A stretch of 25,394 nt of DNA from UHGV virus genome UHGV-1498341. The stretch is one strand, 5' to 3'. The notes under the pieces were generated by a model. That model saw only the letters and a list, made by a program, of their open reading frames with translations. It ran no database searches and was not told the DNA's origin. The stretch comes from a virus. Made by a program: the position numbers and the translations under genes. Every line of letters starts with the position of its first letter. The stretch's first letter is position 1. Of the stretch, positions 162 through 25,182 are shown one piece after another.

Positions 162-556
162 TTATTTGAAAATCATATTATATTTTTCAATATCTGGACT
201 ACTCATTTTAGCAGACTTTAAAGCACTACGAATATTACTCGCTTTATTTAATAGCTCAATAACTAGTTTATTATAATCAGCCTGAACAATGCTATCTGTA
301 GTCTTTAACTGCTCACTTAATCTCATCAGTTTACCAATACCGTCAGAAGTATCATCTTCAGCTTTATAATGCTCCTCTTTAGACTTCCAATATTCAATAT
401 TACAAATATCTTTGTAAATATCAATTAAAGCGCCAAGAGCATATAAGTTTCTTCATTGTAATACCTATATCTTTAAAATTTTCAAGCTCACTAATAACCA
501 TTGATTTAATATCATGTATAACTACCCCTGAAAGACTCAATAATGGATTCGACATA
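162..556 (-). pseudogene. hypothetical gene interrupted by an apparent +1 frameshift (not in the ORF track)
   Basis: ATG at 556 with RBS aggaggtg and a 7-nt spacer opens a 44-codon ORF that ends at a TGA at 421-423. The +1 frame is open from 452 to the stop at 162-164 (97 codons, ...YALGALIDIYKDICNIEYWKSKEEHYKAEDD...) with no start codon of its own. Confidence 0.3.
522..530 (-). repeat. motif copy (exact), in ORF-A of the frameshifted gene
   Basis: Plus-strand aaCTACCCCTGaa. Minus reading UCA GGG GUA gives S-G-V. Confidence 0.8.
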
Positions 557-573
557 TTACAACACCTCCTGAC

Positions 574-1074
574 TTAAAGAACCTCATCCAACTTACTTTG
601 TAATTCATTAACTTTAGACTCTAACTCACTAATTTTAGTTTTCATCTCATCATATAACTTTGTATTTTGTTCGCCGGTATCGCTCGGTTGACTTGCAGCT
701 ACAATTTCGACTGATAAATTTTTATCTTCAACAAAGCTATACGTTTGAATATTCGCAATACCAAGGTTATCTGTGCTTTTTACATAAAACTTAGAGTTGT
801 CAGAGTCCATTAGCAATACATTACTGTTCGGTCTAAGTCGAAAAGCCTTAGCCCCTTTCATACCATTTACAAAGGTTATATTTGTTTGTGCCTGAAAATT
901 TTGATTATTAAAGTTTGCATTTTTCTGAGCTAAATTGGCAGTATAACTATTATATGGAATGTAATTATTAAAACTCGGATTTTGCTGAAAATTATTAAAC
1001 ATTGAAAAATAACCTCCTAAGACCTCTTCATCTACCCCTAGTATAACAAAAATAGGAGAGTTAATCAATACCAC
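574..1074 (-). CDS. hypothetical protein with an N/Q-rich region and a C-terminal coiled coil
   Basis: 166 aa from a GTG start in the track. An alternative ATG at Met25 has an aggtgg RBS. Hydrophobic N-terminus, Asn/Gln-rich middle, heptad C-terminus (ISELESKVNELQSKLDEVL). Confidence 0.45.
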   Translation of the reverse strand: MVLINSPIFVILGVDEEVLGGYFSMFNNFQQNPSFNNYIPYNSYTANLAQKNANFNNQNFQAQTNITFVNGMKGAKAFRLRPNSNVLLMDSDNSKFYVKSTDNLGIANIQTYSFVEDKNLSVEIVAASQPSDTGEQNTKLYDEMKTKISELESKVNELQSKLDEVL

Positions 1075-1152
1075 TTAACTCTCCTATTTATACCAATATA
1101 TTCATACCTTAATACAAAATAAATACCAACAAACTACCAAAAAAGTATCATC

Positions 1153-1419
1153 CTAATGTGTATCCATATACAACTCAGCTGCACTCATTTTGCGGAGTGG
1201 TAAATCTTTACAGTATTTTTGGACATTATCATATTTCCATTTTAGTCTCTTAATAATTCTATTAACCTTACCTACTGAAATATTAAACTTTTCAGCTTGC
1301 TCTGATATTGTAAGACCTGCAACTCTTGTGCAGAGTATATCCTGCTCCTCTTTAGTTAAACAAGCTTCCTCAATAAAAGTCTCGACTATCTTTTTAGTCC
1401 AACATATTTGTTTTGCCAT
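1153..1419 (-). CDS. small HTH DNA-binding protein (sigma-70 region 4 / ArpU-like transcription regulator)
   Basis: 88 aa. LTKEEQDILCTRVAGLTISEQAEKFNISVGKVNRIIKRLKWK is a sigma-70 region-4 / LuxR-type helix-turn-helix. RBS taggagg. Confidence 0.55.
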   Translation of the reverse strand: MAKQICWTKKIVETFIEEACLTKEEQDILCTRVAGLTISEQAEKFNISVGKVNRIIKRLKWKYDNVQKYCKDLPLRKMSAAELYMDTH

Positions 1420-1440
1420 TATTTTTCCTCCTAACTAGAA

Positions 1441-1481
1441 AGAGGACAAAAGCTACCCCTGATTGGATGCCTTTATCCTCT
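1441..1481 (-). other. hairpin whose 21-nt loop displays the CAGGGGTAG motif, immediately upstream of the HTH-regulator RBS
   Basis: Arms agaggacaaa (1441-1450) and tttatcctct (1472-1481) pair on the minus-strand RNA with one G-U. The loop 1451-1471 holds an exact motif copy. Confidence 0.3.
1453..1461 (-). repeat. motif copy (exact), intergenic, in a hairpin loop
   Basis: Plus-strand agCTACCCCTGat in the non-coding spacer between the 67-aa and HTH genes. Confidence 0.8.
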
Positions 1482-1493
1482 GTTTAAACTAAA

Positions 1494-1697
1494 CTATTTA
1501 TTTTGCTTAAGTATATGAACTTTCCAATTGTAATCTACGTCATCAGTGAATACATTTAAACAGGTTTCGTAGTCATCCTCATAGTCAAGATTAAATCTGA
1601 CTTGAGGAGAACTACCCCTGATACGCTCAAAATCGTAAAAATTATTGAATTTGTAACCTACACTTTGAAAGTAGTTATTTAACTCCCAATTATACAT
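1494..1697 (-). CDS. small hypothetical protein
   Basis: 67 aa. Starts 10 nt after the endolysin stop. Confidence 0.45.
   Translation of the reverse strand: MYNWELNNYFQSVGYKFNNFYDFERIRGSSPQVRFNLDYEDDYETCLNVFTDDVDYNWKVHILKQNK
1612..1620 (-). repeat. motif copy (exact), in the 67-aa gene
   Basis: Reads AGG GGU AGU = R-G-S (frame 2). Confidence 0.8.
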
Positions 1698-1707
1698 AAG
1701 CTACTCA

Positions 1708-2796
1708 TCATTTAAGCAAAGCATTAACTCTTCGCTGAACCTCTTTGTAATTGTAACCAGCTGCCTCAAGACGAGATTTACGAGAACTACCATTTCCCCA
1801 TTTACCTTGGATAACTTCTCTGGCTATTGTATCGATAGACTTGCTAGGAGTCGAGCTTACTGAACCGCTATGACAAAGCCTATTAACTTCTGCCTGAACC
1901 TCTGAGTAATTGTATCCCTCAGCCTGAAGTCTATTCTTTCTATCTTCTCCATTTCCATAATCACCTCTCATTACAGCCTGAGCTACTTCAGTAATAGACT
2001 TGCTAGGTCTAGGTGCTGGTGCTGGCTGAGGTGCTGGTGCAGGTTTAGGTGCTGGTGCTGGAGCTGGCTTACTAGAAGAACCAAGTAACTCATTTACTTT
2101 TGCCTGAACAGATGAGTAAACGTAACCAGATGCCTCTAATCGTTCCTTTCGCTCTGAGCCATTTCCCCATTTACCATTGATAACTTCTCTGGCTACTTCA
2201 TCAAGCGATTTAACTGGAGCAGGATTGCTAGGAACTACCCCTGAAACGGAAGAACCACCTGAAGCACCAAGTAACTTATTTACCTCATCTGCTATATAAA
2301 ACATCTTTGACATTAAATATGCTCCTGGACAATCTTTATTTTTGAAATCCCTATGAACGGTCATGTTACAACCATTTCTATGATTGATACGGTCATCTTT
2401 ACTGTCAGACCATACTAACTTATTAATATTATTACGTTTACAAACATCTGCAACAAGTTTAATAAGAGAACTCATTGCTACCCCTGAAACATGCCAACCT
2501 GTATCAGCTCCACCGTCATTGGCTACTTCAATTGTAATAGCCCTCATATCATTAGCTTTATTAGAGCTACACCAACTTCTATCGGCTTCATCTACATAGC
2601 AACCTATACGTCCATCAGAACCTACTCCATAATTACTTGATGCCTTACGACTTGTAGGTGCGAAAACATTGGCACATGTCTCAATAGACAAGTTGCCTGC
2701 CATGCAATGTATCGTGATAGTATCAATAGCATGGTCTCTAGGTGAAGTCTTGTTAGGACTAATCTTTACATACTCTACTAAGCTTGAATAACTCAT
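1708..2796 (-). CDS. endolysin: N-acetylmuramoyl-L-alanine amidase (Amidase_2/PGRP) with three C-terminal CW_7 cell-wall-binding repeats
   Basis: 362 aa. The N-terminal domain has ITIHCMAG...CPG. A PAPAPAPKPAPAPQPAPAPRP linker follows. Three approximately 40-aa repeats (GKWGNGSERKERLEASGYVYSSVQAKVNELL, GDYGNGEDRKNRLQAEGYNYSEVQAEVNRL, GKWGNGSSRKSRLEAAGYNYKEVQRRVNALL) match the Cpl-7 CW_7 repeat. Confidence 0.9.
   Translation of the reverse strand: MSYSSLVEYVKISPNKTSPRDHAIDTITIHCMAGNLSIETCANVFAPTSRKASSNYGVGSDGRIGCYVDEADRSWCSSNKANDMRAITIEVANDGGADTGWHVSGVAMSSLIKLVADVCKRNNINKLVWSDSKDDRINHRNGCNMTVHRDFKNKDCPGAYLMSKMFYIADEVNKLLGASGGSSVSGVVPSNPAPVKSLDEVAREVINGKWGNGSERKERLEASGYVYSSVQAKVNELLGSSSKPAPAPAPKPAPAPQPAPAPRPSKSITEVAQAVMRGDYGNGEDRKNRLQAEGYNYSEVQAEVNRLCHSGSVSSTPSKSIDTIAREVIQGKWGNGSSRKSRLEAAGYNYKEVQRRVNALLK
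2011..2068 (-). repeat. hexanucleotide (ggtgct-type) microsatellite encoding the Pro-Ala endolysin linker
   Basis: aggtgctggtgctggctgaggtgctggtgcaggtttaggtgctggtgctggagctggc encodes PAPAPAPKPAPAPQPAPAPRP. Slippage-prone. Confidence 0.7.
2235..2243 (-). repeat. motif copy (exact), in the endolysin
   Basis: Reads S-G-V in SVSGVVPS (frame 1). Confidence 0.8.
2478..2486 (-). repeat. motif copy (exact), in the endolysin
   Basis: Reads S-G-V in HVSGVAMS (frame 1). Confidence 0.8.
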
Positions 2797-2832
2797 GATT
2801 TAATCCTCCTTGTGATAATTATTAAATATATT

Positions 2833-3117
2833 TTATATATATGTAAACAAGTATCCATACGTCTTATTTGAAATCATATGGTATGAATACTCGATTACTA
2901 CTCCTAATACGTTTCCTATCCTCGTATCATCGCCAACTACTACATTGTTTTCATTAGCTAACTGTGTTGTAACATTATTGACTAGACATTTAAAAAATGT
3001 ATCTAGCTCATCCTCATCTAGTAGACTCAACCAATTACTAGGATAGGACTTTAGATTGGTAACTATCCATGATTTTACATGTCTTTTAAATCGTGATAAC
3101 TTAAAACTTTCAAACAT
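2833..3117 (-). CDS. hypothetical protein upstream of the endolysin
   Basis: The ORF track starts at a GTG at 3126. The ATG at 3117 has a better RBS (taggaggtg, 6 nt spacer). A consensus sigma-A promoter lies just upstream. Confidence 0.5.
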   Translation of the reverse strand: MFESFKLSRFKRHVKSWIVTNLKSYPSNWLSLLDEDELDTFFKCLVNNVTTQLANENNVVVGDDTRIGNVLGVVIEYSYHMISNKTYGYLFTYI

Positions 3118-3141
3118 TATGGTCACCTCCTAATATGTAGT

Positions 3142-3170
3142 ATTATACCATAATTATTAGTTAAAGTCAA
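3142..3170 (-). promoter_or_regulatory. near-consensus sigma-A promoter: TTGACT-N17-TATAAT
   Basis: Minus strand. TTGACT at 3165-3170, spacer ttaactaataattatgg (17 nt), TATAAT at 3142-3147. Predicted start near 3135. Drives the small gene plus the endolysin. Confidence 0.7.
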
Positions 3171-3232
3171 TAACCATATTACTATTTAATTATTGGTTAC
3201 GAAGTGCTATAATTCATCTTATTGTTAAACTT

Positions 3233-3262
3233 AAAAAGACCAGCAACTTAACATTGCTGGTC
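3233..3262 (-). terminator. rho-independent terminator after accessory island gene 4
   Basis: Minus-strand RNA: gaccagca-auguuaagu-ugcugguc (8-bp GC-rich stem) followed by UUUUU (plus-strand A-run 3233-3237). Confidence 0.65.
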
Positions 3263-3294
3263 AAACTAGAATAGTTTATTATAAAACTTATACA

Positions 3295-3837
3295 TTATTT
3301 TGTCTTAATATCTAATACAACGCTGTAATCATCGTCTTTATTTATACAGCTTTTACCAAAAAGATGAACATCGTTAAATTTCAACTGATGGGCTACACCA
3401 TCTACATTTATAATGATTTTAGCATTACCAAAATCATAACCTATAGAAGCTACCCCTAAAGTTCTGGCATAAGCAAGCAACTCTCGTAAAGTTGTGTAAT
3501 CTTCTGTTTTAGGTGTGTAATCCTTTAAAATAAAAGCTAGGTTACCAGACATAAAAAATTCTCTAATTGGTATCTCAGAAAAGTCATAAAGCTTATCATC
3601 AATTTCAAAGAGTAACTCGTAGCAGAAATTTTCTTTCAAATTATTTATACAATATTGACTGAAATCTTTCATACTTGTAAAATCATAATCTTCATGTAGT
3701 CCTAGTATAATAACATTAGCAGTGTTAATCACTCCTAAAGGCTTTATACTATCTAAAACATAAGTCTTATCGTTTAAATTAAACTGCATTCCACCCTTAC
3801 GACACTGTATCATTTCAACAAAATCAAATAACTTCAT
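3295..3837 (-). CDS. hypothetical protein (accessory island gene 4)
   Basis: 180 aa. RBS aaaaggagg. Followed by an intrinsic terminator. Confidence 0.5.
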   Translation of the reverse strand: MKLFDFVEMIQCRKGGMQFNLNDKTYVLDSIKPLGVINTANVIILGLHEDYDFTSMKDFSQYCINNLKENFCYELLFEIDDKLYDFSEIPIREFFMSGNLAFILKDYTPKTEDYTTLRELLAYARTLGVASIGYDFGNAKIIINVDGVAHQLKFNDVHLFGKSCINKDDDYSVVLDIKTK

Positions 3838-3860
3838 ATTAATATCCTCCTTTTAATTGT

Positions 3861-3882
3861 TAGAGGGGAAAAATCCCCTCTA
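3861..3882 (-). other. perfect 9-bp hairpin between island genes 3 and 4, with no U-tract
   Basis: tagagggga-aaaa-tcccctcta lies between the stop at 3880 and the next RBS. It may be a processing or stability element or a partial attenuator. Confidence 0.4.
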
Positions 3883-4533
3883 AAACAATATCCTCTGCTC
3901 TACCCCTTTATTACGATAGAATTCCTCAACCTTTAATTTATTTGATTCAATCCAATCATCTTTAACTTCTTCTATGCATGAATCATATGGTATAAGCTGT
4001 TTTCTTAATTCATCAATATCATGAGCTGAAACATAAGTATCATACAAAGAAAACTCTTTAACAAATTTACCATGCTTTACGTTTTCACTTCTAGTGCAAA
4101 ACTCTAAGTAATTAGGGTCTGCACTTAGCTTCTTTAAAGGAGCTGTATCAATGACTACTCCTTTGTAGTAAGCATTATCACAACCTATATTCAACAACTT
4201 TGGTTGCATCTTACTTATAACACAATGATTGATTTCTAACCCTGACTGATACTTTTCAAAGGCTATTTTATCGGTTGCAAGCATTGTTAGCGCATACAAC
4301 TTAATCGGCATCCCTGAAATATAAACTTCAGGGTAAATACCTCCCTTACAAAAATGAACTGGGAGTTTCTGCATGTCACCTGCATTATTCATTTTATGCA
4401 CTACAAAAGTATTATCTACTTTATAAGTGCCATCAGATAACTCAAAAGTTGCTGATTTGAACGAGCCATCTGACTCAAACTCACGATGCATATTTGCATC
4501 GATTACTCCTAGCATTCTTAAAGTCTCACTCAT
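3880..4533 (-). CDS. hypothetical protein (accessory island gene 3)
   Basis: 217 aa. RBS aaggagg sits inside the upstream gene's 3' end, suggesting translational coupling. No motif recognised. Confidence 0.5.
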   Translation of the reverse strand: MSETLRMLGVIDANMHREFESDGSFKSATFELSDGTYKVDNTFVVHKMNNAGDMQKLPVHFCKGGIYPEVYISGMPIKLYALTMLATDKIAFEKYQSGLEINHCVISKMQPKLLNIGCDNAYYKGVVIDTAPLKKLSADPNYLEFCTRSENVKHGKFVKEFSLYDTYVSAHDIDELRKQLIPYDSCIEEVKDDWIESNKLKVEEFYRNKGVEQRILF

Positions 4534-4534
4534 T

Positions 4535-4828
4535 TTATTTGTCCTCCTTATTGATTAAATCTAAACTGTAACCTGCACTGATTGTTGATGCTAAAACCAT
4601 CAACTCATTCAACTCCTTCTTCAAACCCTTTATAAGGTCTGAAGATGCAACATCATGCTCACGCATAACATTATAAACTTCATCTTTATCATCTGACCAA
4701 AACAGGTCTTCAGATAATACCTTTTCTCTTGAGGTATTATACTTATCCTCAAGCTTTTCAACCTTTTGAACAAGAGGTTGTAACTGGCTTAAACCACTTA
4801 AAAATAACTCAACATTTTTGTTTAACAT
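4535..4828 (-). CDS. hypothetical helical protein (accessory island gene 2)
   Basis: 97 aa. Strong RBS aaaggagg. Its stop lies 1 nt from the next start. Confidence 0.5.
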   Translation of the reverse strand: MLNKNVELFLSGLSQLQPLVQKVEKLEDKYNTSREKVLSEDLFWSDDKDEVYNVMREHDVASSDLIKGLKKELNELMVLASTISAGYSLDLINKEDK

Positions 4829-4941
4829 TTTATTTTCCTCCTTTAATTGTTTAATAAATATATTTTTATATTAAATGCTAGAAGAAACACCTTATAAAAG
4901 ATATTCATCTTGAGGTGATAATATGATTTTTACTCCTCTAG

Positions 4942-4963
4942 CATTTCATACACAATATATTTT
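4942..4963 (-). promoter_or_regulatory. conserved 22-bp box, copy 1 (aaaatatattgtgtatgaaatg on the minus strand)
   Basis: 21 of 22 positions identical to copy 2. Lies 114 nt upstream of the island gene 2 ATG. A possible weak promoter (TTGTGT-N17-TAAAAA) overlaps it. A 12-bp inverted repeat (aaatgctagaag at 4873-4884, cctctagcattt at 4935-4946) flanks it. Confidence 0.4.
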
Positions 4964-4987
4964 CATATCATGTTTATGAAAACAAAC

Positions 4988-5467
4988 CTAATATTTGCAA
5001 GGTTCATCCTCACGAACCTTAAAGTCTGTTAGGTCTAATAAAGACCTCATCAAACTCTCCTCTACTTCTTTCGTTGTAAAATGTTCATAATCTACCTCAT
5101 ATGTAAGATATGAAGATACCTGCTCTAACAACGACTCCTTGAGCCATACAAACTGAGCATATTCATCTGGACTGAATACATCCAGACCTAACACATCATC
5201 AAGTATACTACAACTATGGTAGTATACTTTATCTTCAGTAGCCTGAAGATAAATCTTAAGGACTAATACTACCCCTGAGATTGAAACCTCTTTGTAAAAA
5301 GATATTTCTGTTATACCTTGATAATTTGTATCACTTCCATATGCCAATACCATACCATTAACTTCTTCAAACTTAGTAACTAAATAATCCATGCTACTAA
5401 ACATATTAATACTTCTGTGCTCTTTCTTAAACTCCTTGCTCTCAACTACTTTACTTGATAATCTCAT
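4988..5467 (-). CDS. hypothetical acidic protein (accessory island gene 1)
   Basis: 159 aa. Preceded by a 460-nt leader that is driven by a consensus promoter. Confidence 0.5.
   Translation of the reverse strand: MRLSSKVVESKEFKKEHRSINMFSSMDYLVTKFEEVNGMVLAYGSDTNYQGITEISFYKEVSISGVVLVLKIYLQATEDKVYYHSCSILDDVLGLDVFSPDEYAQFVWLKESLLEQVSSYLTYEVDYEHFTTKEVEESLMRSLLDLTDFKVREDEPCKY
5269..5277 (-). repeat. motif copy (exact), in island gene 1
   Basis: Reads ISGVVLVL (frame 1). Confidence 0.8.
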
Positions 5468-5610
5468 TTTTTTGTCCTCCTATAAAGATAATATTGTAAT
5501 AAGTCTTTGTATAATATAAAATGATATTCACTTTGTGGTGTGGAGTCTCACATTTGTTCAATTTAATATTCGTGAGGGGTAAGATTAAAACCATCGCCAC
5601 ATTGTTTATT

Positions 5611-5632
5611 CATTTTATACACAATATATTTT
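5611..5632 (-). promoter_or_regulatory. conserved 22-bp box, copy 2 (aaaatatattgtgtataaaatg on the minus strand)
   Basis: Lies 144 nt upstream of the island gene 1 ATG, inside the long leader. Candidate operator shared by the two island transcription units. Confidence 0.4.
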
Positions 5633-5933
5633 GAACTCAAGTAAGTGAAAAATAAGCTGATAAAATATATTTTTCATACTTACTTTATTCAGTTATACAA
5701 AGTATATTTTCATCTCAGTTAGTAGTAAAAATACCTTACAAAACATAAAAGTAAATATTTACTACCCCTTGGTTATGTAAAACATATTTTGATATTACAA
5801 ATACATAAAAATACATTATAAAGACAAAAAATAAGTGAGGCACACTACAAACTTGTAATGCACCCCACCTATCTTAAAGAGGACAATAAAATGAGAAGAA
5901 CATAAGGCAAAACCCTAAACTTATTACTCACTT

Positions 5934-5962
5934 ATTATAACATAAAACTAAGAAAATGTCAA
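5934..5962 (-). promoter_or_regulatory. perfect consensus sigma-A promoter: TTGACA-N17-TATAAT
   Basis: Minus strand. TTGACA at 5957-5962, a 17-nt spacer, TATAAT at 5934-5939. Begins 10 bp after the holin stop and points into the 460-nt leader and accessory island. Confidence 0.7.
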
Positions 5963-5971
5963 TACATCTAC

Positions 5972-6469
5972 TTATTCATTCTTATCTTTTATATTGAATG
6001 TCTTTTTAATCCAATTAACTACCTCTCTTGGTGTTGATTTATCTACACAATCAGATACCTGAACTAATATCTCTTTAACCCATTTAGGGAAAGGAACTCC
6101 AATATTAGCTAAATTTTCTAAAAGACTTATAAGCTCCTCAATACAGAACCAAATAACAACTAAAGTCCTTATTGATAATGATATGCCCCAAAACGTAGGT
6201 GTTTTTCCTGCTAAGTCTAGCAAACACATATCAACCTTCAATGCTATGAAAATAGCTAGGAAAATAAAGACCTTTCTCATAATTCCATTACGTAACTCAG
6301 TTGAACTTAAAGTCTTCTTCATGATAGCGTATACTACCCCTGAAATCATATCAACCAATATTAATGAGATTAGCAACTCAAGTGCTGAATCAAATCCACC
6401 TAATGCTGCAACTACAGTAGATATTACAACTGTAAAACTAGACTTGATGATAAATAATGCTTTATCCAT
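5972..6469 (-). CDS. holin (phage_holin_4_1 / holin_tox_secr, TcdE-phi105 type)
   Basis: 165 aa with three or four hydrophobic helices (VVISTVVAALGG, LLISLILVDMISGVVYAI, VFIFLAIFIALKV, LVVIWFCIEELISLL) and a charged C-terminus. Lies directly after the tail genes. Confidence 0.75.
   Translation of the reverse strand: MDKALFIIKSSFTVVISTVVAALGGFDSALELLISLILVDMISGVVYAIMKKTLSSTELRNGIMRKVFIFLAIFIALKVDMCLLDLAGKTPTFWGISLSIRTLVVIWFCIEELISLLENLANIGVPFPKWVKEILVQVSDCVDKSTPREVVNWIKKTFNIKDKNE
6334..6342 (-). repeat. motif copy (exact), in the holin
   Basis: Reads MISGVVYA (frame 1). Confidence 0.8.
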
Positions 6470-6482
6470 AATTTTATGCCTC

Positions 6483-8054
6483 CTATGCCTGTGTTAATGT
6501 ATATATGATTTTCATAGTTTTATCTTCAGTTTTTGTTAATACTGTCTCCTGATTATTAATTGTGCCTAAGTATGCTGAAACTATTAAAGGAACATATAAC
6601 TTTAAATCTGAAGAGCTACTATGCATATTCATCTCAATATAAGGACTAGGTATTAAATCATTGTTATCAATTAAACAATGATTTAAATATAAATGTATGC
6701 TATTATTAATCATAAAAGGATGTGTCTGCATAGTTCCATCATCGTCTATTAAAAACCAAGCAAAACCTCCAGTTCCGTCTGGTGCTACGTAGCAAAGACT
6801 ACCCCTGTATTCCTTAAAAAATCCACCAAGACCTAAATCATAATATCCTCCTTTTCTATTAGTGCCTGCAAGTAAAGTAATCATCTTACTTGTAAGAGCT
6901 ATATCTTTAAAAGTATAAGTTCCATCAAAATTTACGACCCAAACTCTTAACTTATTTGGTCTTGTATTTAAATCAGAGAAATTAAACTGTCCAGTTATAA
7001 TATATAACTTATCATTATGAATTATTTTATCTTGACTATTTAAACAATTTAGCTTACCTGTTTTACCAAAATATGCAGTTATTGCAGAGTTAATATTACT
7101 TGCAGGTATTGTAATTCTTTCTGCTACTCCATTGCCTGAATACTTTACAATTTTAAACTCTGAGTAACTTCCATCACCATCTTGACAAAAAGCATGGTCT
7201 TTAGTTGTGTAAGGTATATCTCTATATACTTCTATACCTGTATTAATAACTTCTGATGATTTTATATTTCCGTAATTGAAGCCATCAACTAAGCCTAAGC
7301 CAAACTTCTCCTTTGCTAAAACCTTAGAAATATTTTGTTTGTTATCATTACCTCTGTAAACTACGTGTAAATAATCACCATCTAACCATGCACACTTTCC
7401 TTTATTACTATCCCAACCTTTAGCATTTACTAAAGCGCCATTAGTATGATAACTTAAGTCTGCTTCTATAGATGTATCCCAAAAATTATCAGAATAAAAA
7501 TCCCTTAAACTTAAACCTTTAAGAGAATCTTCCTTTGCGTCACAACCATAACCTACTGCTCCACCACAATCAGATGTTAGACAAATGCTAGCTATGTCTC
7601 CATTGCATTGGTCTGTATTAAAATCCCAAACAAATTTTACATAGTCTGTTCCAACCTCAGACTCTCCTGCATTTATACTACCCCTGAAAGTATTACCTGT
7701 ATTAGATGCCGACTGATTGGCACAACCAATAAAAGTCTTAATCTCTTCAATGCTAGGTAAACAATGGTCTACGTCCTCAGTAATAGGTTTTGAGAAAACT
7801 AAAACTCCACCATATAATGCTTGAGCAAAATTTTTACCTGTCGGTAACTGATATAAGCTTTCTACATACCCCATACTACCAGCCCACATATTGCCTGAGG
7901 CTAATTGATTAAATGCCCCACCTAAAGCATTTCTAACAGCATTAGTAACCAAGTTTGTCTTGGTTACCTCATCTGTCAATTTTCCAGTTTTTGCATCGAA
8001 TAACTGAATAGTTGTTTTTCCTTTTAACATATAATCACCTCTAACTTTGGTCAT
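6483..8054 (-). CDS. receptor-binding / tail fiber protein
   Basis: 523 aa. The last tail gene before the holin. Gly/Asn-rich, beta-rich composition. Confidence 0.45.
   Translation of the reverse strand: MTKVRGDYMLKGKTTIQLFDAKTGKLTDEVTKTNLVTNAVRNALGGAFNQLASGNMWAGSMGYVESLYQLPTGKNFAQALYGGVLVFSKPITEDVDHCLPSIEEIKTFIGCANQSASNTGNTFRGSINAGESEVGTDYVKFVWDFNTDQCNGDIASICLTSDCGGAVGYGCDAKEDSLKGLSLRDFYSDNFWDTSIEADLSYHTNGALVNAKGWDSNKGKCAWLDGDYLHVVYRGNDNKQNISKVLAKEKFGLGLVDGFNYGNIKSSEVINTGIEVYRDIPYTTKDHAFCQDGDGSYSEFKIVKYSGNGVAERITIPASNINSAITAYFGKTGKLNCLNSQDKIIHNDKLYIITGQFNFSDLNTRPNKLRVWVVNFDGTYTFKDIALTSKMITLLAGTNRKGGYYDLGLGGFFKEYRGSLCYVAPDGTGGFAWFLIDDDGTMQTHPFMINNSIHLYLNHCLIDNNDLIPSPYIEMNMHSSSSDLKLYVPLIVSAYLGTINNQETVLTKTEDKTMKIIYTLTQA
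6799..6807 (-). repeat. motif copy (exact), in the receptor-binding protein
   Basis: Reads EYRGSL (frame 2). Confidence 0.8.
7678..7686 (-). repeat. motif copy (exact), in the receptor-binding protein
   Basis: Reads TFRGSI (frame 2). Confidence 0.8.
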
Positions 8055-8055
8055 T

Positions 8056-15485: not shown

Positions 15486-15627
15486 CTAGAATCTCACGAG
15501 TAATAAATTACTTCTTCAAAACTACCCCTTTATACTGCCTGAATGGAAATACAACTGAGTGCTTCATAATATTTACAGAAAGGGCATAATAACTACAATA
15601 TAAAAGTAATAAGTTTAAAAGATTTTA

Positions 15628-16912: not shown

Positions 16913-16949
16913 AAAAAGATAGGATACCCCTAGATAACTAGAGGTATCC
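16913..16949 (-). terminator. terminator/attenuator hairpin between the major tail and chaperone genes
   Basis: Minus-strand RNA: ggauaccucuag-uuau-cuagggguaucc (12-bp stem with one G-U pair), then uauc and UUUUU. The stem contains a variant copy of the motif (GGGGTATCC). Confidence 0.5.
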
Positions 16950-18324: not shown

Positions 18325-18744
18325 TTACTTAGCAACTATAACTTTATTATCTAAATTACTGCCAAATTGATAATCAGATATAGCAGTAATCTCATATAAG
18401 CTACCCCTATTGTTTCGGTAATCATTTATTGTTAAACCATCTAAGTCAATAACTCCAAAACCAATTAAATCTTCTTTGGATATTGTATATGTAGTATCTA
18501 TATTAACTGTCTCGTCATTTTTAAAGGTAAATGAATCGACATAACTTTTATTTGCTTTAACATCTCTTGGAATGTAACAAGTAACTTTATCATCTTTGCT
18601 ACTACCAGTAGTTTTTCGTGCATTTACCTCATCCAAAACAAACTGAACACCTGATAATATAACCCTTGAGTAATATACTTTATTATCTCGTTCATACTTA
18701 TTGAAAATTGTAATAGTATGTGGAAATAACGACATAATACTCAA
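18325..18744 (-). CDS. head closure / head-tail adaptor protein
   Basis: 139 aa. Assigned by synteny. Confidence 0.4.
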   Translation of the reverse strand: MSIMSLFPHTITIFNKYERDNKVYYSRVILSGVQFVLDEVNARKTTGSSKDDKVTCYIPRDVKANKSYVDSFTFKNDETVNIDTTYTISKEDLIGFGVIDLDGLTINDYRNNRGSLYEITAISDYQFGSNLDNKVIVAK

Positions 18745-18768: not shown

Positions 18769-19152
18769 TTAAATCCAACTACAAGTAAGTGGTGTTCCTC
18801 CAAGATATGAATTTACAACTGAATGTAAACTAGACATTACTGATTTAGGTAATGTATCTGAAGCATAGTTTACAGACCAACTACCAACAGATTCAGAAGA
18901 TTTAATACCTACCCCGATAGACTCTGATTCAAGTCTATCACATATAGCACATACACAAGACTTAACTCGCATAAGTGTAAACTCATTTAAACTATCTTCG
19001 GTAAGATTTTGAAATCTACCAAAAGTAAAATTGTCTACAGTAATATAGCTAAGATTTAATAACCTATTAAAATCATCTTCACTGAGTTTGCCATGAAACT
19101 CATCTTTGTAGTAATTGTAATCTACAGTAATCATATAACAAACTCCTTTCAT
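18769..19152 (-). CDS. head-tail connector / DNA packaging (gp6- or gp15-like) protein
   Basis: 127 aa. First of four small genes between the capsid and major tail genes. Assigned by synteny and size only. Confidence 0.4.
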   Translation of the reverse strand: MKGVCYMITVDYNYYKDEFHGKLSEDDFNRLLNLSYITVDNFTFGRFQNLTEDSLNEFTLMRVKSCVCAICDRLESESIGVGIKSSESVGSWSVNYASDTLPKSVMSSLHSVVNSYLGGTPLTCSWI

Positions 19153-19847: not shown

Positions 19848-20714
19848 TTAGACTATAAGATTTTTTTTAACAGTTACACAAGCTGGATTTGTAACCTTGA
19901 AACCAGTGTCAACCTCTTCCTGAACGAGTGCACCTGCTGCATTAGGGTTATCAATAGTTCTCAGCATAACAAGCTTATCGATGATTGAATAAGCCATATG
20001 GTCATACATGATAAGCTCTACTTTAGAAGTATCTGCTGTCTGAGATACCCCTGAAGCGTTTCTGTATTTGAAAGAACCACCAAGCAAAGTAGCTTCAACC
20101 CAAAGCATACCCATCCAATAACCTACACGTCCAGTAGCAACAACTGAATCATTTGCAACTGGTGTATAATCTTTTCCAGCTGTCTCAAGCATAGCAGAAT
20201 AAGCATCTACTGATGCAATAACAACATCTGGTCTAGCATGTTTCTTTCTTAAATCTTTACGAAGAGCTAAAACCTTCTCCTTAATATTAGCTGATGTGAT
20301 AGCATCAGTATCAGATGAAGCAGTTCCCTCTGTAACTAATACAGCAAGACCTGTCTTCTGACGAGCAATACGAATATCCTCTGTTACTGCCCAAGTCTTA
20401 TTTAAAAGAACTGATGTTGGCATTGTAGCCTGAACATAAGCTGGAACCTTCTGACTCTTCTGGAAAGAGTTATTAGTGTTGATATCAATAACTGTATTAG
20501 CATACTCGCTATTTACGAAATCAGCACCTGGAACCTTTGGTTCAATACTATTATCTGGTGAATAAACCTCAACCTGAATCTGACCTGCATTACCTACATC
20601 ATGCTCAGATGTGAAAGTTACACCATCCTGAAAAATCTCATCTGCATATAAGCCACCTTCAACTACAGGTGACATACCAGTGGCTACAGTAGCCTGACCT
20701 ACAACTAAAGCCAT
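19848..20714 (-). CDS. major capsid protein
   Basis: 288 aa. Immediately follows the scaffold gene with a tight RBS aggagg. SPP1-like order portal-scaffold-MCP. No prohead protease gene is present. Confidence 0.6.
   Translation of the reverse strand: MALVVGQATVATGMSPVVEGGLYADEIFQDGVTFTSEHDVGNAGQIQVEVYSPDNSIEPKVPGADFVNSEYANTVIDINTNNSFQKSQKVPAYVQATMPTSVLLNKTWAVTEDIRIARQKTGLAVLVTEGTASSDTDAITSANIKEKVLALRKDLRKKHARPDVVIASVDAYSAMLETAGKDYTPVANDSVVATGRVGYWMGMLWVEATLLGGSFKYRNASGVSQTADTSKVELIMYDHMAYSIIDKLVMLRTIDNPNAAGALVQEEVDTGFKVTNPACVTVKKNLIV
20047..20054 (-). repeat. motif copy (8-mer TACCCCTG; TAT replaces TAG), in the MCP
   Basis: Reads NASGVSQT. Confidence 0.7.
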
Positions 20715-20727
20715 AATTGTTTACCTC

Positions 20728-21459
20728 CTATTTTCGTATACCTTTGTTACGAAGAAATGTATCGACTGCACTGTCGACATCATTAACTCCGTTTGGATTA
20801 ACTACCCCTGTAAAGGAAGTAGCACCTTGTGCTACTTGACCTGTCTGAACTGTAGACTGAACAGCAACACTAGGATTTTGAGCAACACCCTGAACCTGTG
20901 CAACAGCACTAGGCTGGTTTGTATTTACCTGCTGATTTTGAGCGACACTCGTATTCTGCATAGCAGTCTGAGAAGATACCTGACCTGCAGATGGAATAGT
21001 CTGTGGTGTAGGCTGAGTGTTCTGAATGCTCTGACTGATATTGAATAATTGAGCATTTGCCTGAGTGTATTCCTTCACTGCATCTGCAAAGCTTTTTCCA
21101 TTAACAGCAAGCTTCTGAGCTTCAAAAGCAACAAACTCTTGCATATAAGCAGGAACTCCTGCATTAGCAACAATTTCTTTGTTTTTGTAACCCTGTAACT
21201 CTGCAAGGTAACTCTGTGATAACTGCTGTGCCTGAGCTAACTGATTTGTTAAATCCTGAACATGCTGATTAAGCGGATTTACTCTGCCCTGAATGATACT
21301 ATTCAACTGCTCCTGAGTAAACAGTGCCTGACTGTTTTGAGCTGACTGAGTAGGCTGAGTAGGATACCCCTGATTGACTACTTGAGTCTGAGTAGGCTGA
21401 CTCTGCACATTTTGCTGGGTGATAGGCACATTGGCTGTCGCATTAGTTAAATTATCCAT
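20728..21459 (-). CDS. scaffolding protein (Q-rich, coiled-coil)
   Basis: 243 aa with a Gln/Ala-rich low-complexity N-terminus, a predicted coiled coil and a basic C-terminus. Lies between portal and capsid genes. Driven by its own consensus promoter. Confidence 0.6.
   Translation of the reverse strand: MDNLTNATANVPITQQNVQSQPTQTQVVNQGYPTQPTQSAQNSQALFTQEQLNSIIQGRVNPLNQHVQDLTNQLAQAQQLSQSYLAELQGYKNKEIVANAGVPAYMQEFVAFEAQKLAVNGKSFADAVKEYTQANAQLFNISQSIQNTQPTPQTIPSAGQVSSQTAMQNTSVAQNQQVNTNQPSAVAQVQGVAQNPSVAVQSTVQTGQVAQGATSFTGVVNPNGVNDVDSAVDTFLRNKGIRK
20802..20810 (-). repeat. motif copy (exact), in the scaffold gene
   Basis: Reads FTGVVNP (frame 1). Confidence 0.8.
21365..21372 (-). repeat. motif copy in the forbidden frame, realised as CAG GGG TAT
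   Basis: Scaffold reads VNQGYP. The frame in which TAG would be a stop carries TAT instead. Confidence 0.7.
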
Positions 21460-21505
21460 AATATCAATCCTCCACGATTTTACGTCTCTCGACTACTTTA
21501 AATGT

Positions 21506-21534: not shown

Positions 21535-21645
21535 GAGGAGTTATAGAAAAATATTAACATAATAAAAAATACATAACAAAACATACTTTAAACTAAATAA
21601 AAAGCCTATATTGTATAAACAATACAAGCTCTTTATAGTTACAAG

Positions 21646-23085
21646 TTATTCAGCTGATTGTGCAGTGTCTGATGAAATAGCATTGATTTTTGTTTGAGCA
21701 TCTTCAATAGTTTCACCATACCACTTTGCTCTATACTCAGCTTTAGACATAATACCATCTCTAACATCCTGTCTATCCTGCTCTCTCTCTTTATCATCAG
21801 CCTCAACAATATTATCTTGAGCAGTTACAGTAACCTTAGCGTCAGCATTAACTGCTACCCCTAGAACATTTTGACCTAACCAAAGTATCTCAGATACTAA
21901 AGACTTAATAGCTACACATACCATATTAGTCATTTTACCAGAGTTACGAACAAAATCCTGTCTCTCACCTGCATACTCAGTAGCTGTAACACCATTACTC
22001 ATTGAGAAATTATAAAACTTTGTTCCAAAACCTACAAGACTACTAAACATATTTAACTGATTTTGTAGTTCAGCGTCAAGCTCAGTAGAACGTAAACTTG
22101 GTGCAAAGTCCTTAATATATTCATTGATAGAAGTATCTGCATCATCACCAAAGAACTGCATTAAAGACTGTCTCATATCTTGAGGTGCAATAGGTTTACC
22201 TTGGTCATCACAAGTAAGTAAACACTTATTCATCATGATAATTCTTCTACCATTAATAACCTCTACTACACAATTATCATATACCTGGTCAATACCCTTA
22301 AGAGTATCAATAGCATTGTAATAAATGGATACCCCAAGAGGACTGTCTAAATCAACATTATTTGCAATATTAGTTTTCATTATAACAAAAAGAGGTTTAA
22401 TACTCTTTGTTCGTATAATACTCAATACTGGAATATCTAAATTAACTTTTTGATAGTTAGCATTATAAATATCATTGTAGATTACATAACCATCAGACTC
22501 CTTGATATGTGAACTAACTGTATAATAAGTCTTGCCTTTTATATTAGTCTCTGAAACAAAAGCGACCTCGGTGATTATACCGTTATCATAAGAGATAGGT
22601 ATAATCCTTGTAGCATTGTAAGACTTAATCTTGATAGTAGCATTAGCTCCACTAACAATATTACCATTAGTATCAACAGTTATACCGTCCAAATCAAGAG
22701 CAAGAGCAGATGTTCCAAGAGCAAACATTTTCTCAAGATTGTCAGATAATATTGTAGAAAAGTTATTACTGCCTAAGACTCCACCATTTTCTTTACTGCC
22801 CTGAACAAAGATACTAGACTTATTGTTTGATGAGCTAACTACAATACTTAAATCCTCACTTAATACTGATGAAACCCAATCTTCACAAGCTCGTTTAGCC
22901 ATATTCAAATGAAACATCTCACGACTAGGAGTAGTAATACCATTGCTATATGATACTGTATGATAACTTTTAACGAAGCCTTTATACCAATCAAGCCACT
23001 CACCTATTTTAGTGTAGTAGCTGGCAACGTTATAGCAGTGACCAAATCTACCCCTGATACATTTTAACATTGAACCATAATCCAT
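21646..23085 (-). CDS. portal protein
   Basis: 479 aa ORF directly downstream of terL, of typical portal size. Acidic C-terminus. Assigned by synteny only; no motif recognised. Confidence 0.65.
   Translation of the reverse strand: MDYGSMLKCIRGRFGHCYNVASYYTKIGEWLDWYKGFVKSYHTVSYSNGITTPSREMFHLNMAKRACEDWVSSVLSEDLSIVVSSSNNKSSIFVQGSKENGGVLGSNNFSTILSDNLEKMFALGTSALALDLDGITVDTNGNIVSGANATIKIKSYNATRIIPISYDNGIITEVAFVSETNIKGKTYYTVSSHIKESDGYVIYNDIYNANYQKVNLDIPVLSIIRTKSIKPLFVIMKTNIANNVDLDSPLGVSIYYNAIDTLKGIDQVYDNCVVEVINGRRIIMMNKCLLTCDDQGKPIAPQDMRQSLMQFFGDDADTSINEYIKDFAPSLRSTELDAELQNQLNMFSSLVGFGTKFYNFSMSNGVTATEYAGERQDFVRNSGKMTNMVCVAIKSLVSEILWLGQNVLGVAVNADAKVTVTAQDNIVEADDKEREQDRQDVRDGIMSKAEYRAKWYGETIEDAQTKINAISSDTAQSAE
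23048..23056 (-). repeat. motif copy (exact), in the portal gene
   Basis: Reads CIRGRFG (frame 2). Confidence 0.8.
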
Positions 23086-23096
23086 TATTAGACCTC

Positions 23097-24446
23097 CTAA
23101 CTACAAAACTTAATTATCTTATCCAAAAATGCTGACCAACTATACTCTTCAGCATCGGCAATATCAATATCAACAGAACCATTATCAAGTCTTTCATCTT
23201 CATGTCCTGGTCTACTATCCCAAACTTGATGTTCAGTAGAGCCAATAACAAACTTACAAGACTTATTAACAAGCCAATGTCGTCTAGCAAGCATAGATTG
23301 TTTAGCTGTAATACGCTTCTTAATAGTATGCTTTTGACAATTCAAAACTCTAATCTGATTATACATAGATAACTCTTTGATTACAGACCTAATCTCATTA
23401 ATCATAACTGGGTCTGCTGAGTCACCATAGATGTATCTGATTACCCCTAAATTCATTGAAATAACTGTCAATAGAAAACTCTTAAAACGTTCATGAAACT
23501 CTACAACGTCAGAGTTACCACCTTTCATATCTATCTCATCATCAAAGAAAGGAATAATCAAATGATAGTTATTACAGATAAGTGTAGCACAGAAAGCAGT
23601 ATTAGAACCATTACCACCAAAGTCTACACCAATACTTATAAACTGAACAGTAACACCTTTCAAAGACTCATTCAAATCATTTAATACCCAAGGACTACTA
23701 TCTTTAGCAAATAGAGTAAATATCAATCCGTCAGAACAAGCACGATTACCAAGGATACCCCTTTGATATTCAACGCTATTTTTATCTGGATAAGTATTCA
23801 GCAACTCCTGCTTTTGATATTCAGTTAGTGCAGTATTGTCAAACAAACTACAACGCATAAAGTTCATCTTTACTTTTTCATTTTCACAAAACCTATCAAT
23901 ATATTTTGTATAAACTTTATGAGTAGGATAAACTGGGTTTAAATCCCACCAAACTTTTTTATCATGTGACTGGGTAAGACGAGAGAGTGCCATAGCTACA
24001 AAGTCTTTTTCATCATCAGATATATAAAGGTTAGCTAACTCAACAGATAACCAAGAACCAAAAGAAAGACCTTGTATTCGTTTATAACTATCAGATTGAC
24101 CACCACCAACAAAGATTACAATTTTAATACCTGTCTTTGTTTTTATTTTAAGACACTCATTACCTTCGTATTTACCTGACTTACATCTACCCCTGAAGAT
24201 AGCAGTAAGACCTAGACCATTACAATCAGCTACATTTAATCTAGCAGTTGTAGATGAAGCACCAGATACTAGATGTATCCTATCTTTGCAATACTCAAGA
24301 TAATTAGCAAAGCTATAAATATTGATAACTGTTTTACCTGCACGATAAGCCCCCTCAAGACAATTATAAGTATTGGAGAGGCAACGATAATAGTAATCAA
24401 TATACCTCTTGCTGAAAGGTTTTATTTCAACTGTTTGTGTATACAT
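23097..24446 (-). CDS. terL: terminase large subunit (PBSX/phage_term_2-like ATPase plus nuclease)
   Basis: 449 aa. Walker A-like LEGAYRAGKT near the N-terminus. A C-terminal VDFGGNGSNTAF acidic-residue nuclease motif. Canonical position between terS and portal. Confidence 0.85.
   Translation of the reverse strand: MYTQTVEIKPFSKRYIDYYYRCLSNTYNCLEGAYRAGKTVINIYSFANYLEYCKDRIHLVSGASSTTARLNVADCNGLGLTAIFRGRCKSGKYEGNECLKIKTKTGIKIVIFVGGGQSDSYKRIQGLSFGSWLSVELANLYISDDEKDFVAMALSRLTQSHDKKVWWDLNPVYPTHKVYTKYIDRFCENEKVKMNFMRCSLFDNTALTEYQKQELLNTYPDKNSVEYQRGILGNRACSDGLIFTLFAKDSSPWVLNDLNESLKGVTVQFISIGVDFGGNGSNTAFCATLICNNYHLIIPFFDDEIDMKGGNSDVVEFHERFKSFLLTVISMNLGVIRYIYGDSADPVMINEIRSVIKELSMYNQIRVLNCQKHTIKKRITAKQSMLARRHWLVNKSCKFVIGSTEHQVWDSRPGHEDERLDNGSVDIDIADAEEYSWSAFLDKIIKFCS
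24187..24195 (-). repeat. motif copy (exact), in the large terminase gene
   Basis: Reads IFRGRCK (frame 2). Confidence 0.8.
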
Positions 24447-24534
24447 TTCTCATCATCATCCTCTCCAGAATTATCCTTAGAGTCTTCACTATTAATTTTA
24501 TCCTTCATTAAAAGTAATAGCTCTACTAGACTCA

Positions 24535-25182
24535 TTACTCATCATCTCCAAAATCATCTAAATCGTCAAAGTCATCATCTTCGTCAGTTGACTCATCAGA
24601 CTCTTGTAACATAGCCTGAACATCCTCAGGTTTACCAAGTCTCAATCCTGCTGATGTAAAGAGTGAAAGAATATCCTGAATGTCTACCCCTTTATCAGAA
24701 CCATCAAGCTGAAGAATCTTAAGTAACTTTTCAAATGCCCATTTCTTATCCATAAATACAGGGTTTCCAGTCCTACTATCAAAATGGTCTATCATAGACA
24801 AATCATCTTCATCCCATTTTGTAAAGTCTGTAAAATCTTTTTTGATTATTGTATCCTGGACAGTTCTACCATTTTCAAGACAAGTCTGATATACCTGCAT
24901 ATATTTAGCTGGATTGTAATTGATGATTTTATACAAACGCTCAATCATAGTTTCACGTTTATCTTTCTCCTCAATACAAACTCCGTCTCGTATCTCCTGA
25001 ATACGAAATACTACATCTTTACGACACATTAATCTTGAACCCTGCATAGCATGATATGAGTCACAACGAGGATGAGCATCTACCCCGTAACCTGCCTTAA
25101 AACAAGCCTCTGATGGGTCACAACCTTCTCTAGCCATAAACTGGCAAAACTTTTCCATTCGAGCATTTCTTAATTTAGCCAT
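24535..25182 (-). CDS. terS: terminase small subunit (Terminase_2-like), acidic C-terminal tail
   Basis: 215 aa. The N-terminus (LRNARMEKFCQFMAREG...KAGYGVDAHP...AMQGSRLMCRKDVVFRIQEI) matches the HTH pattern of small terminases (ERFCQEY...AGYS...QGSRLL...V..RI.EL). It lies immediately upstream of the large terminase. RBS aaaggag sits 10 nt upstream. Confidence 0.8.
   Translation of the reverse strand: MAKLRNARMEKFCQFMAREGCDPSEACFKAGYGVDAHPRCDSYHAMQGSRLMCRKDVVFRIQEIRDGVCIEEKDKRETMIERLYKIINYNPAKYMQVYQTCLENGRTVQDTIIKKDFTDFTKWDEDDLSMIDHFDSRTGNPVFMDKKWAFEKLLKILQLDGSDKGVDIQDILSLFTSAGLRLGKPEDVQAMLQESDESTDEDDDFDDLDDFGDDE

Follow-up and report, generated by a model that had tools for sequence, protein, structure and literature searches.

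The stretch of DNA analysed here, referred to as the window, is the 25,394-nt virus genome UHGV-1498341, in which a short G-rich word is repeated along a single strand. All open reading frames (ORFs) tiling the window lie on the minus strand, and the coding-strand reading of the word is CAGGGGTAG. When joined, the window ends form a perfect TTGACA-17-TATAAT promoter (positions 7-2 followed by 25378-25373), and since this promoter exists only across the joined ends, the window is a closed circle, the complete 25.4-kb genome of a siphophage. The genes are, in coding order, TerS, a PBSX-type TerL, portal, capsid, tail genes, a 1727-aa tape measure, tail-tip proteins and holin, followed by small ORFs, an endolysin with Amidase_2 and CW_7 domains, a small HTH protein and a 166-aa protein. 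TerL and a 217-aa early protein are identical to those of 'Siphoviridae sp. ctoSr5', an uncultivated-virus record.

The Pfam/PHROGs scan covered 20 window ORFs of the early, lysis and tail-tip modules and part of the tail module; the eight ORFs outside it are those between 18325 and 24446, TerL included, and the tape measure (10242-15425). Among the 20 ORFs scanned, no gene for replication, recombination, integration or lysogeny, and no nuclease or nuclease inhibitor, was recognised. Nine small window ORFs were without recognised function.

The 9-mer CTACCCCTG occurs 25 times on the plus strand, from 522 to 24187, and never on the minus strand, while dinucleotide shuffles give 0.08 expected copies. 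An earlier note on the same DNA had listed these 25 copies, and every position was matched exactly. The shorter TACCCCT was counted 40 times on the plus strand (39 in the earlier note) and once on the minus strand, at 5575-5581, where a single reverse core had also been reported; 1.76 copies are expected. Read on the coding strand, the core GGGGTA is distributed 44:1 over the two strands. The coding strand has 56 GGGG starts and 3 CCCC starts, and 44 of the 56 GGGG runs fall within the word, so that the asymmetry of such runs claimed earlier was borne out with counts somewhat different from the approximately 50 and two first given.

In the aligned copies GGGGTA is invariant in all 44, with A at position -1 in 40, C at -2 in 28, and G after TA in 36. 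The base following TAG is T, C or A and not mainly A, as the earlier note had it. The octamer AGGGGTAG is the commonest of the genome and lies wholly on the terminase-to-tail strand. Repeat families detected in the window consist of the word plus chance flanks and nothing more. The word has the consensus [C][A/T/C]GGGGTA[G/T], is kept by selection on one strand at approximately one copy per 450-550 bp, and is interpreted as a directional DNA signal. Its copies in the window are the following.

523-529, minus strand: CAGGGGTAG copy, in a 45-aa ORF
1033-1039, minus strand: TAGGGGTAG copy
1454-1460, minus strand: CAGGGGTAG copy, intergenic
1613-1619, minus strand: CAGGGGTAG copy
2236-2242, minus strand: CAGGGGTAG copy, endolysin
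2479-2485, minus strand: CAGGGGTAG copy, endolysin
3451-3457, minus strand: TAGGGGTAG copy
3901-3907, minus strand: AAGGGGTAG copy
5270-5276, minus strand: CAGGGGTAG copy
5575-5581, plus strand: lone reverse-oriented core (AGGGGTA on the plus strand), intergenic leader of the early operon
5763-5769, minus strand: AAGGGGTAG copy, intergenic leader
6335-6341, minus strand: CAGGGGTAG copy, holin
6800-6806, minus strand: CAGGGGTAG copy
7679-7685, minus strand: CAGGGGTAG copy
7867-7872, minus strand: core-only GGGGTA, preceding base other than A
8398-8404, minus strand: CAGGGGTAG copy
8886-8892, minus strand: CAGGGGTAT copy
9577-9583, minus strand: CAGGGGTAG copy
10404-10410, minus strand: CAGGGGTAG copy, tape measure
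10695-10701, minus strand: TAGGGGTAG copy, tape measure
11151-11157, minus strand: CAGGGGTAG copy, tape measure
11415-11421, minus strand: CAGGGGTAG copy, tape measure
12657-12663, minus strand: CAGGGGTAG copy, tape measure
13347-13353, minus strand: CAGGGGTAG copy, tape measure
14259-14265, minus strand: CAGGGGTAG copy, tape measure
14298-14304, minus strand: CAGGGGTAG copy, tape measure; forms the only gap below 150 bp, with 14259-14265
15523-15529, minus strand: AAGGGGTAG copy, intergenic
16119-16125, minus strand: CAGGGGTAG copy
16400-16406, minus strand: CAGGGGTAG copy
16582-16588, minus strand: CAGGGGTAG copy
16925-16931, minus strand: TAGGGGTAT copy, intergenic
17582-17588, minus strand: CAGGGGTAG copy
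18402-18408, minus strand: TAGGGGTAG copy
18910-18915, minus strand: core-only copy, CGGGGTA
20046-20052, minus strand: CAGGGGTAT copy, capsid gene
20803-20809, minus strand: CAGGGGTAG copy
21365-21371, minus strand: CAGGGGTAT copy, the sole third-frame copy, ending TAT and not TAG
21856-21862, minus strand: TAGGGGTAG copy, portal
22330-22335, minus strand: core-only GGGGTA, preceding base other than A, portal
23049-23055, minus strand: CAGGGGTAG copy, portal
23442-23448, minus strand: TAGGGGTAA copy, TerL; six close relatives have AGGGGTAG there
23756-23762, minus strand: AAGGGGTAT copy, TerL
24188-24194, minus strand: CAGGGGTAG copy, TerL, encoding the conserved F-R-G-R-C; retained in distant relatives too
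24685-24691, minus strand: AAGGGGTAG copy, TerS
25081-25086, minus strand: core-only GGGGTA, preceding base other than A, TerS

The excess resides at the nucleotide level. A third-order Markov null predicts 1.34 copies of AGGGGTAG, and 34 were observed (z=28). Within genes, where 30 copies were observed, synonymous-codon shuffling leaves 1.43 +/- 1.16 (maximum 6 in 300 shuffles) and shuffling of codon order 0.23. The Markov-3 and synonymous-codon comparisons had been proposed in the earlier note, and the excess survives both. With respect to reading frame, 25 copies are read as xCA-GGG-GTA-G, 9 as AGG-GGT-AG, and one, a GTAT variant, in the third frame; the word uses both frames that are free of an in-frame TAG. 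Five copies lie outside ORFs of at least 60 aa, one of these within a 45-aa ORF. Of the GGG codons in the genome, 28 out of 39 sit in GGG-GTA, and the Gly-Val dipeptide is found 64 times with 35 expected, which indicates that the word has shaped even the protein sequences. Codon usage and a protein motif are ruled out as the cause by the frame analysis together with the synonymous and codon-order shuffles.

Homology and a duplicated domain were likewise ruled out as the source of the copies. The copies are spread over at least 20 different genes, in two frames, and also between genes; a relative (L001; L-numbers are labels of comparison loci and contigs in this analysis) keeps the density in a foreign tail module; and the word recurs in unrelated carriers. 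Neither are the copies confined to repeated domains or local arrays, as an artefact of tandem or domain repeats would be. None of the three outcomes named in the earlier note as contrary to a selected element, that is, parity after codon shuffling, an equally frequent reverse complement, and restriction to one duplicated domain, was observed. In control loci, approximately 150 from distantly related phages and prophages with PBSX-type terminases (2.28 Mb), GGGGTAG occurs just 26+11 times, and the top octamer usually reaches z values of 5-10, with a few exceptions of 12.7-23.3 (L078, L139/L141 and L155). Neither the word nor strand-specific phage motifs at even spacing came up in the literature searched, in agreement with the earlier statement that no phage element of this sequence has been described.

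The 44 copies are spaced more evenly than by chance. Their gaps have a coefficient of variation (CV) of 0.52, where randomly placed copies would give 0.97 (P<0.0003); the widest gap measures 1369 bp (random median approximately 2400), and gaps below 150 bp make up 2% where 23% are expected. Relatives are more regular still, with gap CVs of 0.33 in L009, 0.40 in L001 and 0.44 in L002 and an overall range of 0.33-0.6. When gaps are pooled, the mode falls at 400-500 bp, with a deficit on the short as well as the long side. In alignments with six close relatives, 78-91% of the copies are intact, compared with 34-55% of all 8-mers in the same alignments, and purifying selection thus acts on the copies.

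Relatives with 65-68% TerL identity keep the core with other flanks, i.e. TGGGGTA[T/G] in L007, L014 and L097-99, and CGGGGTAG in L006. Some of these variant copies share an alignment column with one another, but the columns are unlike those of the window. In three relatives there is a strand bias of GGGTA alone (L008 76:2, L100 42:1, L017 23:0). The head and lysis genes of L001 are more than 90% identical to the window and its tail module is foreign; the copies are of the T type in the foreign tail module and of the A type in the remaining genome. The flank type (A, T or C) differs by lineage and moves with recombined modules, and the word therefore marks module exchange. Regular spacing and lineage-specific flanks, together with the presence in unrelated elements described below, are new beyond the first reading of this DNA.

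Other repeats and genes were met in the relatives. GTCTGCCG in L010/L011 was considered as a variant of the word and rejected as a local tandem cluster. In the same two loci (TerL 54% identical to that of the window), CGTCTGC[CT]G is present 11 times on one strand at approximately 6900-8900 with a period of about 13-14; this local array may represent iterons or a pac site. L014 has three consecutive ORFs with EcoRI_methylase Pfam matches at 2820-4732.

The word is not limited to small phages. A pattern scan of viral contigs returned a 76-kb contig (L295) from the same metagenome as the closest relatives of the window. In the 39 kb read, it has approximately 95 copies of GGGGTA, mostly as CAGGGGTAG, on the single strand that also holds all the genes. 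The 25-kb phage and this element of the same metagenome have the identical 9-mer, yet nothing encoded in the 39 kb matched a window protein even at E≤1. Further carriers were gathered with the IS605-type TnpB of the 76-kb contig as bait: contigs of 64 kb (with T-type flanks), 134 kb and 187 kb, the last encoding topoisomerase II-like proteins and a DnaB-like helicase, and related contigs of 352, 67 and 38 kb, in which 21 kb hold 46-50 copies. Not one of these carriers has a reverse copy. When metagenomes were scanned with two paired 11-mers, 31 stretches were found on contigs of 20-274 kb, most with the same word pattern. All carriers examined have their genes on one strand, with the word in sense orientation, and none had genuine opposite-strand genes. 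A phage with its own Sak/SSB/exonuclease module and primase-helicase is devoid of the word.

No shared protein was detected between the window and the large elements. This lack of a detectable common protein argues against a private phage enzyme and makes the reader of the word probably host-encoded.

The IS605-type TnpB genes are common in large carriers, often with a MerR-resolvase partner (L295 3521-4687; L348, L351, L352 and L357-L362). Without exception they point the same way as the word strand, and the L295 copy itself contains three words. The same element has a 2-kb word-free gap at 889-2927 over a 523-aa ORF, which may be a recent acquisition that has not yet accumulated the word. 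L360 (170 kb) and L362 (256 kb) have one-strand genes with ORFs of 3213, 3373 and 11,602 aa, and GGGTA ratios of 61:9 and 60:2 with no extended word; they may be giant mobile elements or chromosomal DNA. Pattern matches in L180, L224, L251, L258, L272, L281, L330, L345/L317, L346, L370/L390 and L371 were rejected as local repeats or palindromic elements. In L346, a 79-kb contig with 47% GC, the intergenic repeat TTGACA...CCAGGGGTAGCCCTGG, a palindrome around GTAG, recurs every ~400-650 bp; the 9-mer within it is a coincidence, and the repeat is distinct from the word treated here.

Junctions between a large carrier and host DNA were found on two contigs, L372 and L394, where word-dense DNA sharing genes with the end of the 76-kb element adjoins word-free DNA. 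Among the shared genes are those for a tail-lysozyme-domain protein and a small tyrosine recombinase. The word-free side encodes ThiT, an ABC-transporter fragment, GreA and UvrD/PcrA in L372, and a cas operon of type I-C with a CRISPR array of two repeats in L394. The thiT-greA-pcrA flank is carried by contigs ERZ809407.1344 NODE-1344 and IMGVR_UViG_3300029871_000141, the cas flank by OGEP01001733.1. These junctions identify the large carrier as an integrated element. In the host flanks (12.75 kb in total) the core GGGGTA occurs once forward and once in reverse, and GC content, gene direction and G-C skew are alike in element and flank; the word strand of the integrated element is the coding strand of the flanking host genes, with positive G-C skew, a leading-strand signature. 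L395 represents the same host locus in the same host species (97.9% nucleotide identity; PcrA 98%) with a different prophage end at 1-6552, which contains a holin, a glucosaminidase-CW_7 lysin and zero GGGGTA. The thiT-proximal site looks like an integration hotspot. With clean flanks and a word-free prophage in L395, the word marks certain mobile elements, and neither the host genome in general nor every element.

The cas operon of L394 (Cas8c, Cas7, Cas4, Cas1) is located at 10270-13811, and its array at 9714-9813 has two repeats and one spacer. The spacer had no match among the sequences gathered in this analysis.

In addition to the promoter across the joined ends, perfect or near-perfect TTGACA-17-TATAAT promoters are found on the minus strand at 5962-5934 and 3170-3142. 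The phage seems fully dependent on host RNA polymerase. Terminator-like hairpins are on the minus strand at 5874-5829 and 3262-3238. Promoters and hairpins split the genome into at least three transcription units, every one of them bearing the word. With the 5934 promoter only ~55 nt upstream, the hairpin at 5874-5829 may belong to a leader or an attenuator, or terminate a small RNA; neither Rfam nor a tRNA scan gave a match in the window, this region included.

Rumen and gut metagenomes contain many relatives, invariably as contigs of 23-30 kb that are circular permutations of one another; relatives of the 25-kb phage were never found embedded in host contigs. In species genomes, the sole match above 60% was a 15.8-kb contig in an 'Anaeroplasma sp.' metagenome-assembled genome, which has no flanks and no extended word. 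Searches by endolysin and holin similarity gave only generic CW_7 and holin likeness as a pointer to the host, and the topoisomerase and lysozyme of the large elements gave no informative match in phage and plasmid collections.

Given nucleotide-level selection, strict polarity, even spread and carriers without a common protein, the simplest reader is a host machine that moves directionally on DNA. We tentatively read the word as a Chi-type site for a host helicase-nuclease of the AddAB/RecBCD type, a reading that is plausible and yet falls short of being probable. For such a site we infer the identity of the reader, the mode and direction of packaging, and the biological benefit as follows. 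The host would be a low-GC Gram-positive group common to the phage and the other carriers. Phage DNA would enter in linear form, presumably with the last-packaged (right) end first; the nuclease would load on this end and move leftward, reading the coding strand, whose 3′ terminus lies at that end, until one of the first few copies makes it stop degrading and load RecA. The genome would be protected, and host recombination would circularise the terminally redundant DNA and build concatemers. The PBSX-type TerL, an SPP1-type portal in a relative and the circularly permuted contigs suggest headful packaging; the ends could then lie anywhere, so that each ~1-2 kb would need several copies, and even spacing over the whole genome would result.

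Published Chi-rich phages provide the closest parallel. Among phages that lack Rec genes, 23 Chi sites are known in LLS, with 20 in active orientation, 32 in MD8, where the top strand holds every one, and 50 in P1 (Zheng et al. 2025, PMC12315714). In these phages, as in the window, Chi is the top octamer, is found on the terminase-to-tail strand and is selected beyond codon usage, and recognisable recombination or anti-RecBCD genes are lacking, which in the window was seen among the ORFs scanned. The 44:1 distribution on the terminase-to-tail coding strand is the orientation seen in LLS and MD8, with the packaging direction as inferred above. The word strand of the integrated element has the orientation of Chi on chromosomes, the flank variants by lineage in small phages and large elements parallel the Chi sequences that differ between species, and the word-free phage with the Sak/SSB/exonuclease module is counted for the Chi-type reading as well. 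Chi-type words of Gram-positive bacteria (B. subtilis AGCGG, L. lactis GCGCGTG, S. aureus GAAGCGG) are also short, G-rich, oriented and host-species-specific, and they protect rolling-circle DNA from AddAB and thus matter to rolling-circle replicons with a free double-stranded end; in S. aureus 89.7% are co-oriented with replication. They are, however, 5-7 nt long and defined on chromosomes or plasmids, whereas the present word is 8-9 nt and so far seen on mobile elements only.

Several observations weigh against the Chi-type reading. No known Chi word, including GCTGGTGG, GNTGGTGG and GCTGGCGC, resembles AGGGGTAG, and the present word is known from mobile-element sequence alone. Its density (1 per 0.45-0.6 kb) is 2-4 times that of any published Chi-rich phage, and its spacing is even, not clustered at the right end as in those phages. 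At an E. coli-like Chi density (1 per 4.6 kb), approximately three copies are expected in the 12.75 kb of host flank, and zero GGGGTAG were found, which is mildly unfavourable, in a length too small to exclude 1 per 5-8 kb; the element parts of the junction contigs have 27 GGGGTAG in 15.8 kb. The 187-kb carrier with DnaB-like and topoisomerase II-like proteins indicates that the word is not limited to elements without replication genes. Moreover, all carriers are one-stranded in their genes, which leaves room for a reader at the level of RNA or transcription. Of the categories put forward in the earlier note, the Chi type fits best among those known, apart from the even spacing and the clean host flank, in which it is unlike known Chi. 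Uptake sequences, also put forward there and typically abundant on both strands of the whole host chromosome, are not supported with a strict 44:1 strand ratio and zero GGGGTAG in the host flank.

The regularity of the gaps is best explained by priming, and the depletion of short as well as long gaps is what priming predicts. The copies would then be start sites of lagging-strand primers, made by host DnaG or by a primase of a resident element during rolling-circle or unidirectional replication, with ~450 bp as the Okazaki length. The template could be the coding-strand 5′-GGGGTA-3′, giving pppACCC with one further C (pppACCCC), and the T7 primase site 5′-GGGTC-3′, which gives pppACCC, is a parallel; alternatively, it could be the complementary 5′-CTACCCCTG-3′ with CCCC as the start. 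The complementary strand reads 5′-CTA-CCCC-TG-3′, and CCCC is biased 56:3 towards the non-coding strand, 44 of these runs being in the word. The word ends in TA, which recalls the d(CTA)/d(TTA) used by DnaG of Bacilli with a start at the middle T. C. difficile DnaG prefers to start at template 5′-d(CCC), most efficiently with C or T as its 5′ neighbour, a trinucleotide that AT-rich clostridial DNA seldom contains (PMC5204125). Candidate primase trinucleotides are present on both strands (CCCC, CTA and CTG on the non-coding, GTA on the coding strand), although no DnaG with GTA has been reported. Occurrence in certain elements only would fit a replication mode foreign to host DNA. An indirect hint comes from the invariable co-orientation of the TnpB genes with the word strand; this is the orientation expected of IS605-type TnpB if the word strand is the lagging-strand template. 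Known primase sites, those of C. difficile, Bacilli and T7 gp4, are similarly strand-specific and spaced at the scale of short Okazaki fragments, but they are 3-5 nt long (DnaG reads three bases) and are not known as strongly over-represented or conserved 8-9-mers, the length conserved here. Furthermore, the complementary-strand version would have replication run against all transcription and, within the integrated element, against host replication, the 187-kb carrier with its own DnaB-like helicase has the same word, and no primase is among the window ORFs scanned. On balance priming is an unlikely explanation. Just as unlikely in our estimation is a new mark specific to mobile elements, read by an undescribed host defence system or a resident-element factor, for example a translocating nuclease that spares marked DNA, or a replication or packaging factor of the large element exploited by the small phage. 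The word being dense in some elements and absent from host flanks and the L395 prophage, the 9-mer shared within one metagenome by the phage and the integrated 76-kb element, and a small phage without recognised replication genes all agree with such a mark, but it has no precedent, and the 39 of 76 kb inspected yielded no candidate reader protein.

Lower probabilities are given to two further explanations. Sites of strand-specific nicking or modification, as in T5, phiKMV-like phages and phage tf, with a nickase cutting at each copy, would account for 9-mers all on one strand with single-base variants by lineage. In the 46-kb genome of tf, 14 TACTRTGMC 9-mers on one strand are all nicked, and tf relatives have a one-base variant read by the authors as enzyme-site co-evolution (PMC3517423). 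Phages of the tf/LUZ24-like, phiKMV-like and T5 types, however, have 4-14 unevenly placed sites per genome and presumably a phage nickase (PMC3517423), whereas the window has 44, approximately six times the densest published case, in an even spacing that nicking leaves unexplained and in unrelated elements. No HNH, GIY-YIG or other nuclease was recognised in the scanned ORFs, the 217-aa protein being unmatched. As the carriers have no shared protein, the nickase would need to be encoded by the host, yet the host flanks are without sites. We regard nicking as very unlikely, and only slightly less so a signal that is read from the non-template strand while the DNA is transcribed, or in the mRNA (CAGGGGUAG), such as repeated loading or pause sites for elongation or anti-termination factors, or sites for an RNA-binding protein spread over very long operons of a single direction. 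The sense-strand location in every carrier examined, the presence in several transcription units of the window and the dependence of the carriers on host sigma-70-type promoters all accord with an RNA-level signal, and the 3′ half of the word is somewhat like the RfaH ops element GGCGGTAG. Known ops-type elements nevertheless act once per operon, in the leader, and not as 44 mostly intragenic copies; no NusG paralogue is among the window ORFs scanned, the co-directional host genes are without the word, and even spacing has no obvious transcriptional rationale.

Polar octamers for translocases, i.e. the FtsK KOPS GGGNAGGG and the SpoIIIE SRS GAGAAGGG, are G-rich 8-mers too, with extreme strand skew towards the leading strand. 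They are chromosomal and serve segregation at approximately one copy per several kb, in contrast to a word missing from the host flanks, and we know of no role for them in phage DNA. More broadly, the word could belong to an undescribed directional process of mobile elements in an uncultured low-GC Firmicute, in which a machine of the host or of a resident element reads GGGGTA words every ~450 bp for priming, nicking or self-marking, and the 25-kb phage has adopted the code of the large elements to use or evade that machine. We consider this broader view somewhat unlikely.

Polar words in excess on phage DNA are known as a category; what is apparently new in the present one is its sequence and density, how regularly it is spaced, flanks that vary by lineage, and an occurrence restricted to a set of mobile elements unrelated to one another. 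A Chi identity would give this uncultured host group its first defined Chi, obtained solely from phage sequence, and with it the most extreme accumulation of Chi known; minimal phages could then swap recombination and replication genes for a dense, evenly spaced host signal. If it serves priming, nicking or self-marking, it would be a new genome-wide punctuation common to unrelated mobile elements. The word also offers a sequence signature by which phages and other mobile elements of one host can be connected, and a marker of module exchange. With word, orientation and control sequences defined, its function is directly testable.

Two further features of the early region were recorded. The 217-aa early protein (3880-4533, minus strand) is, among the non-structural proteins of the family, the best conserved; its relatives number in the hundreds, at 70-82% identity. 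It had no Pfam match at E≤5 and no significant PDB match by sequence or fold. Its structural model is of moderate quality (pLDDT 66.7), with a confidently predicted beta-rich N-terminal domain. An HNH_3-like segment in it, 'EINH...LEFCTRSENVRHGK', was a by-eye impression and was not confirmed. Around the first early ORF there is an AT-rich repeat of ~52 nt in four copies (4845-4896, 4942-4993, 5611-5662 and 5689-5740). The sole reverse-oriented copy of the word, at 5575-5581, falls between these repeats, which are candidates for an operator or a replication origin.

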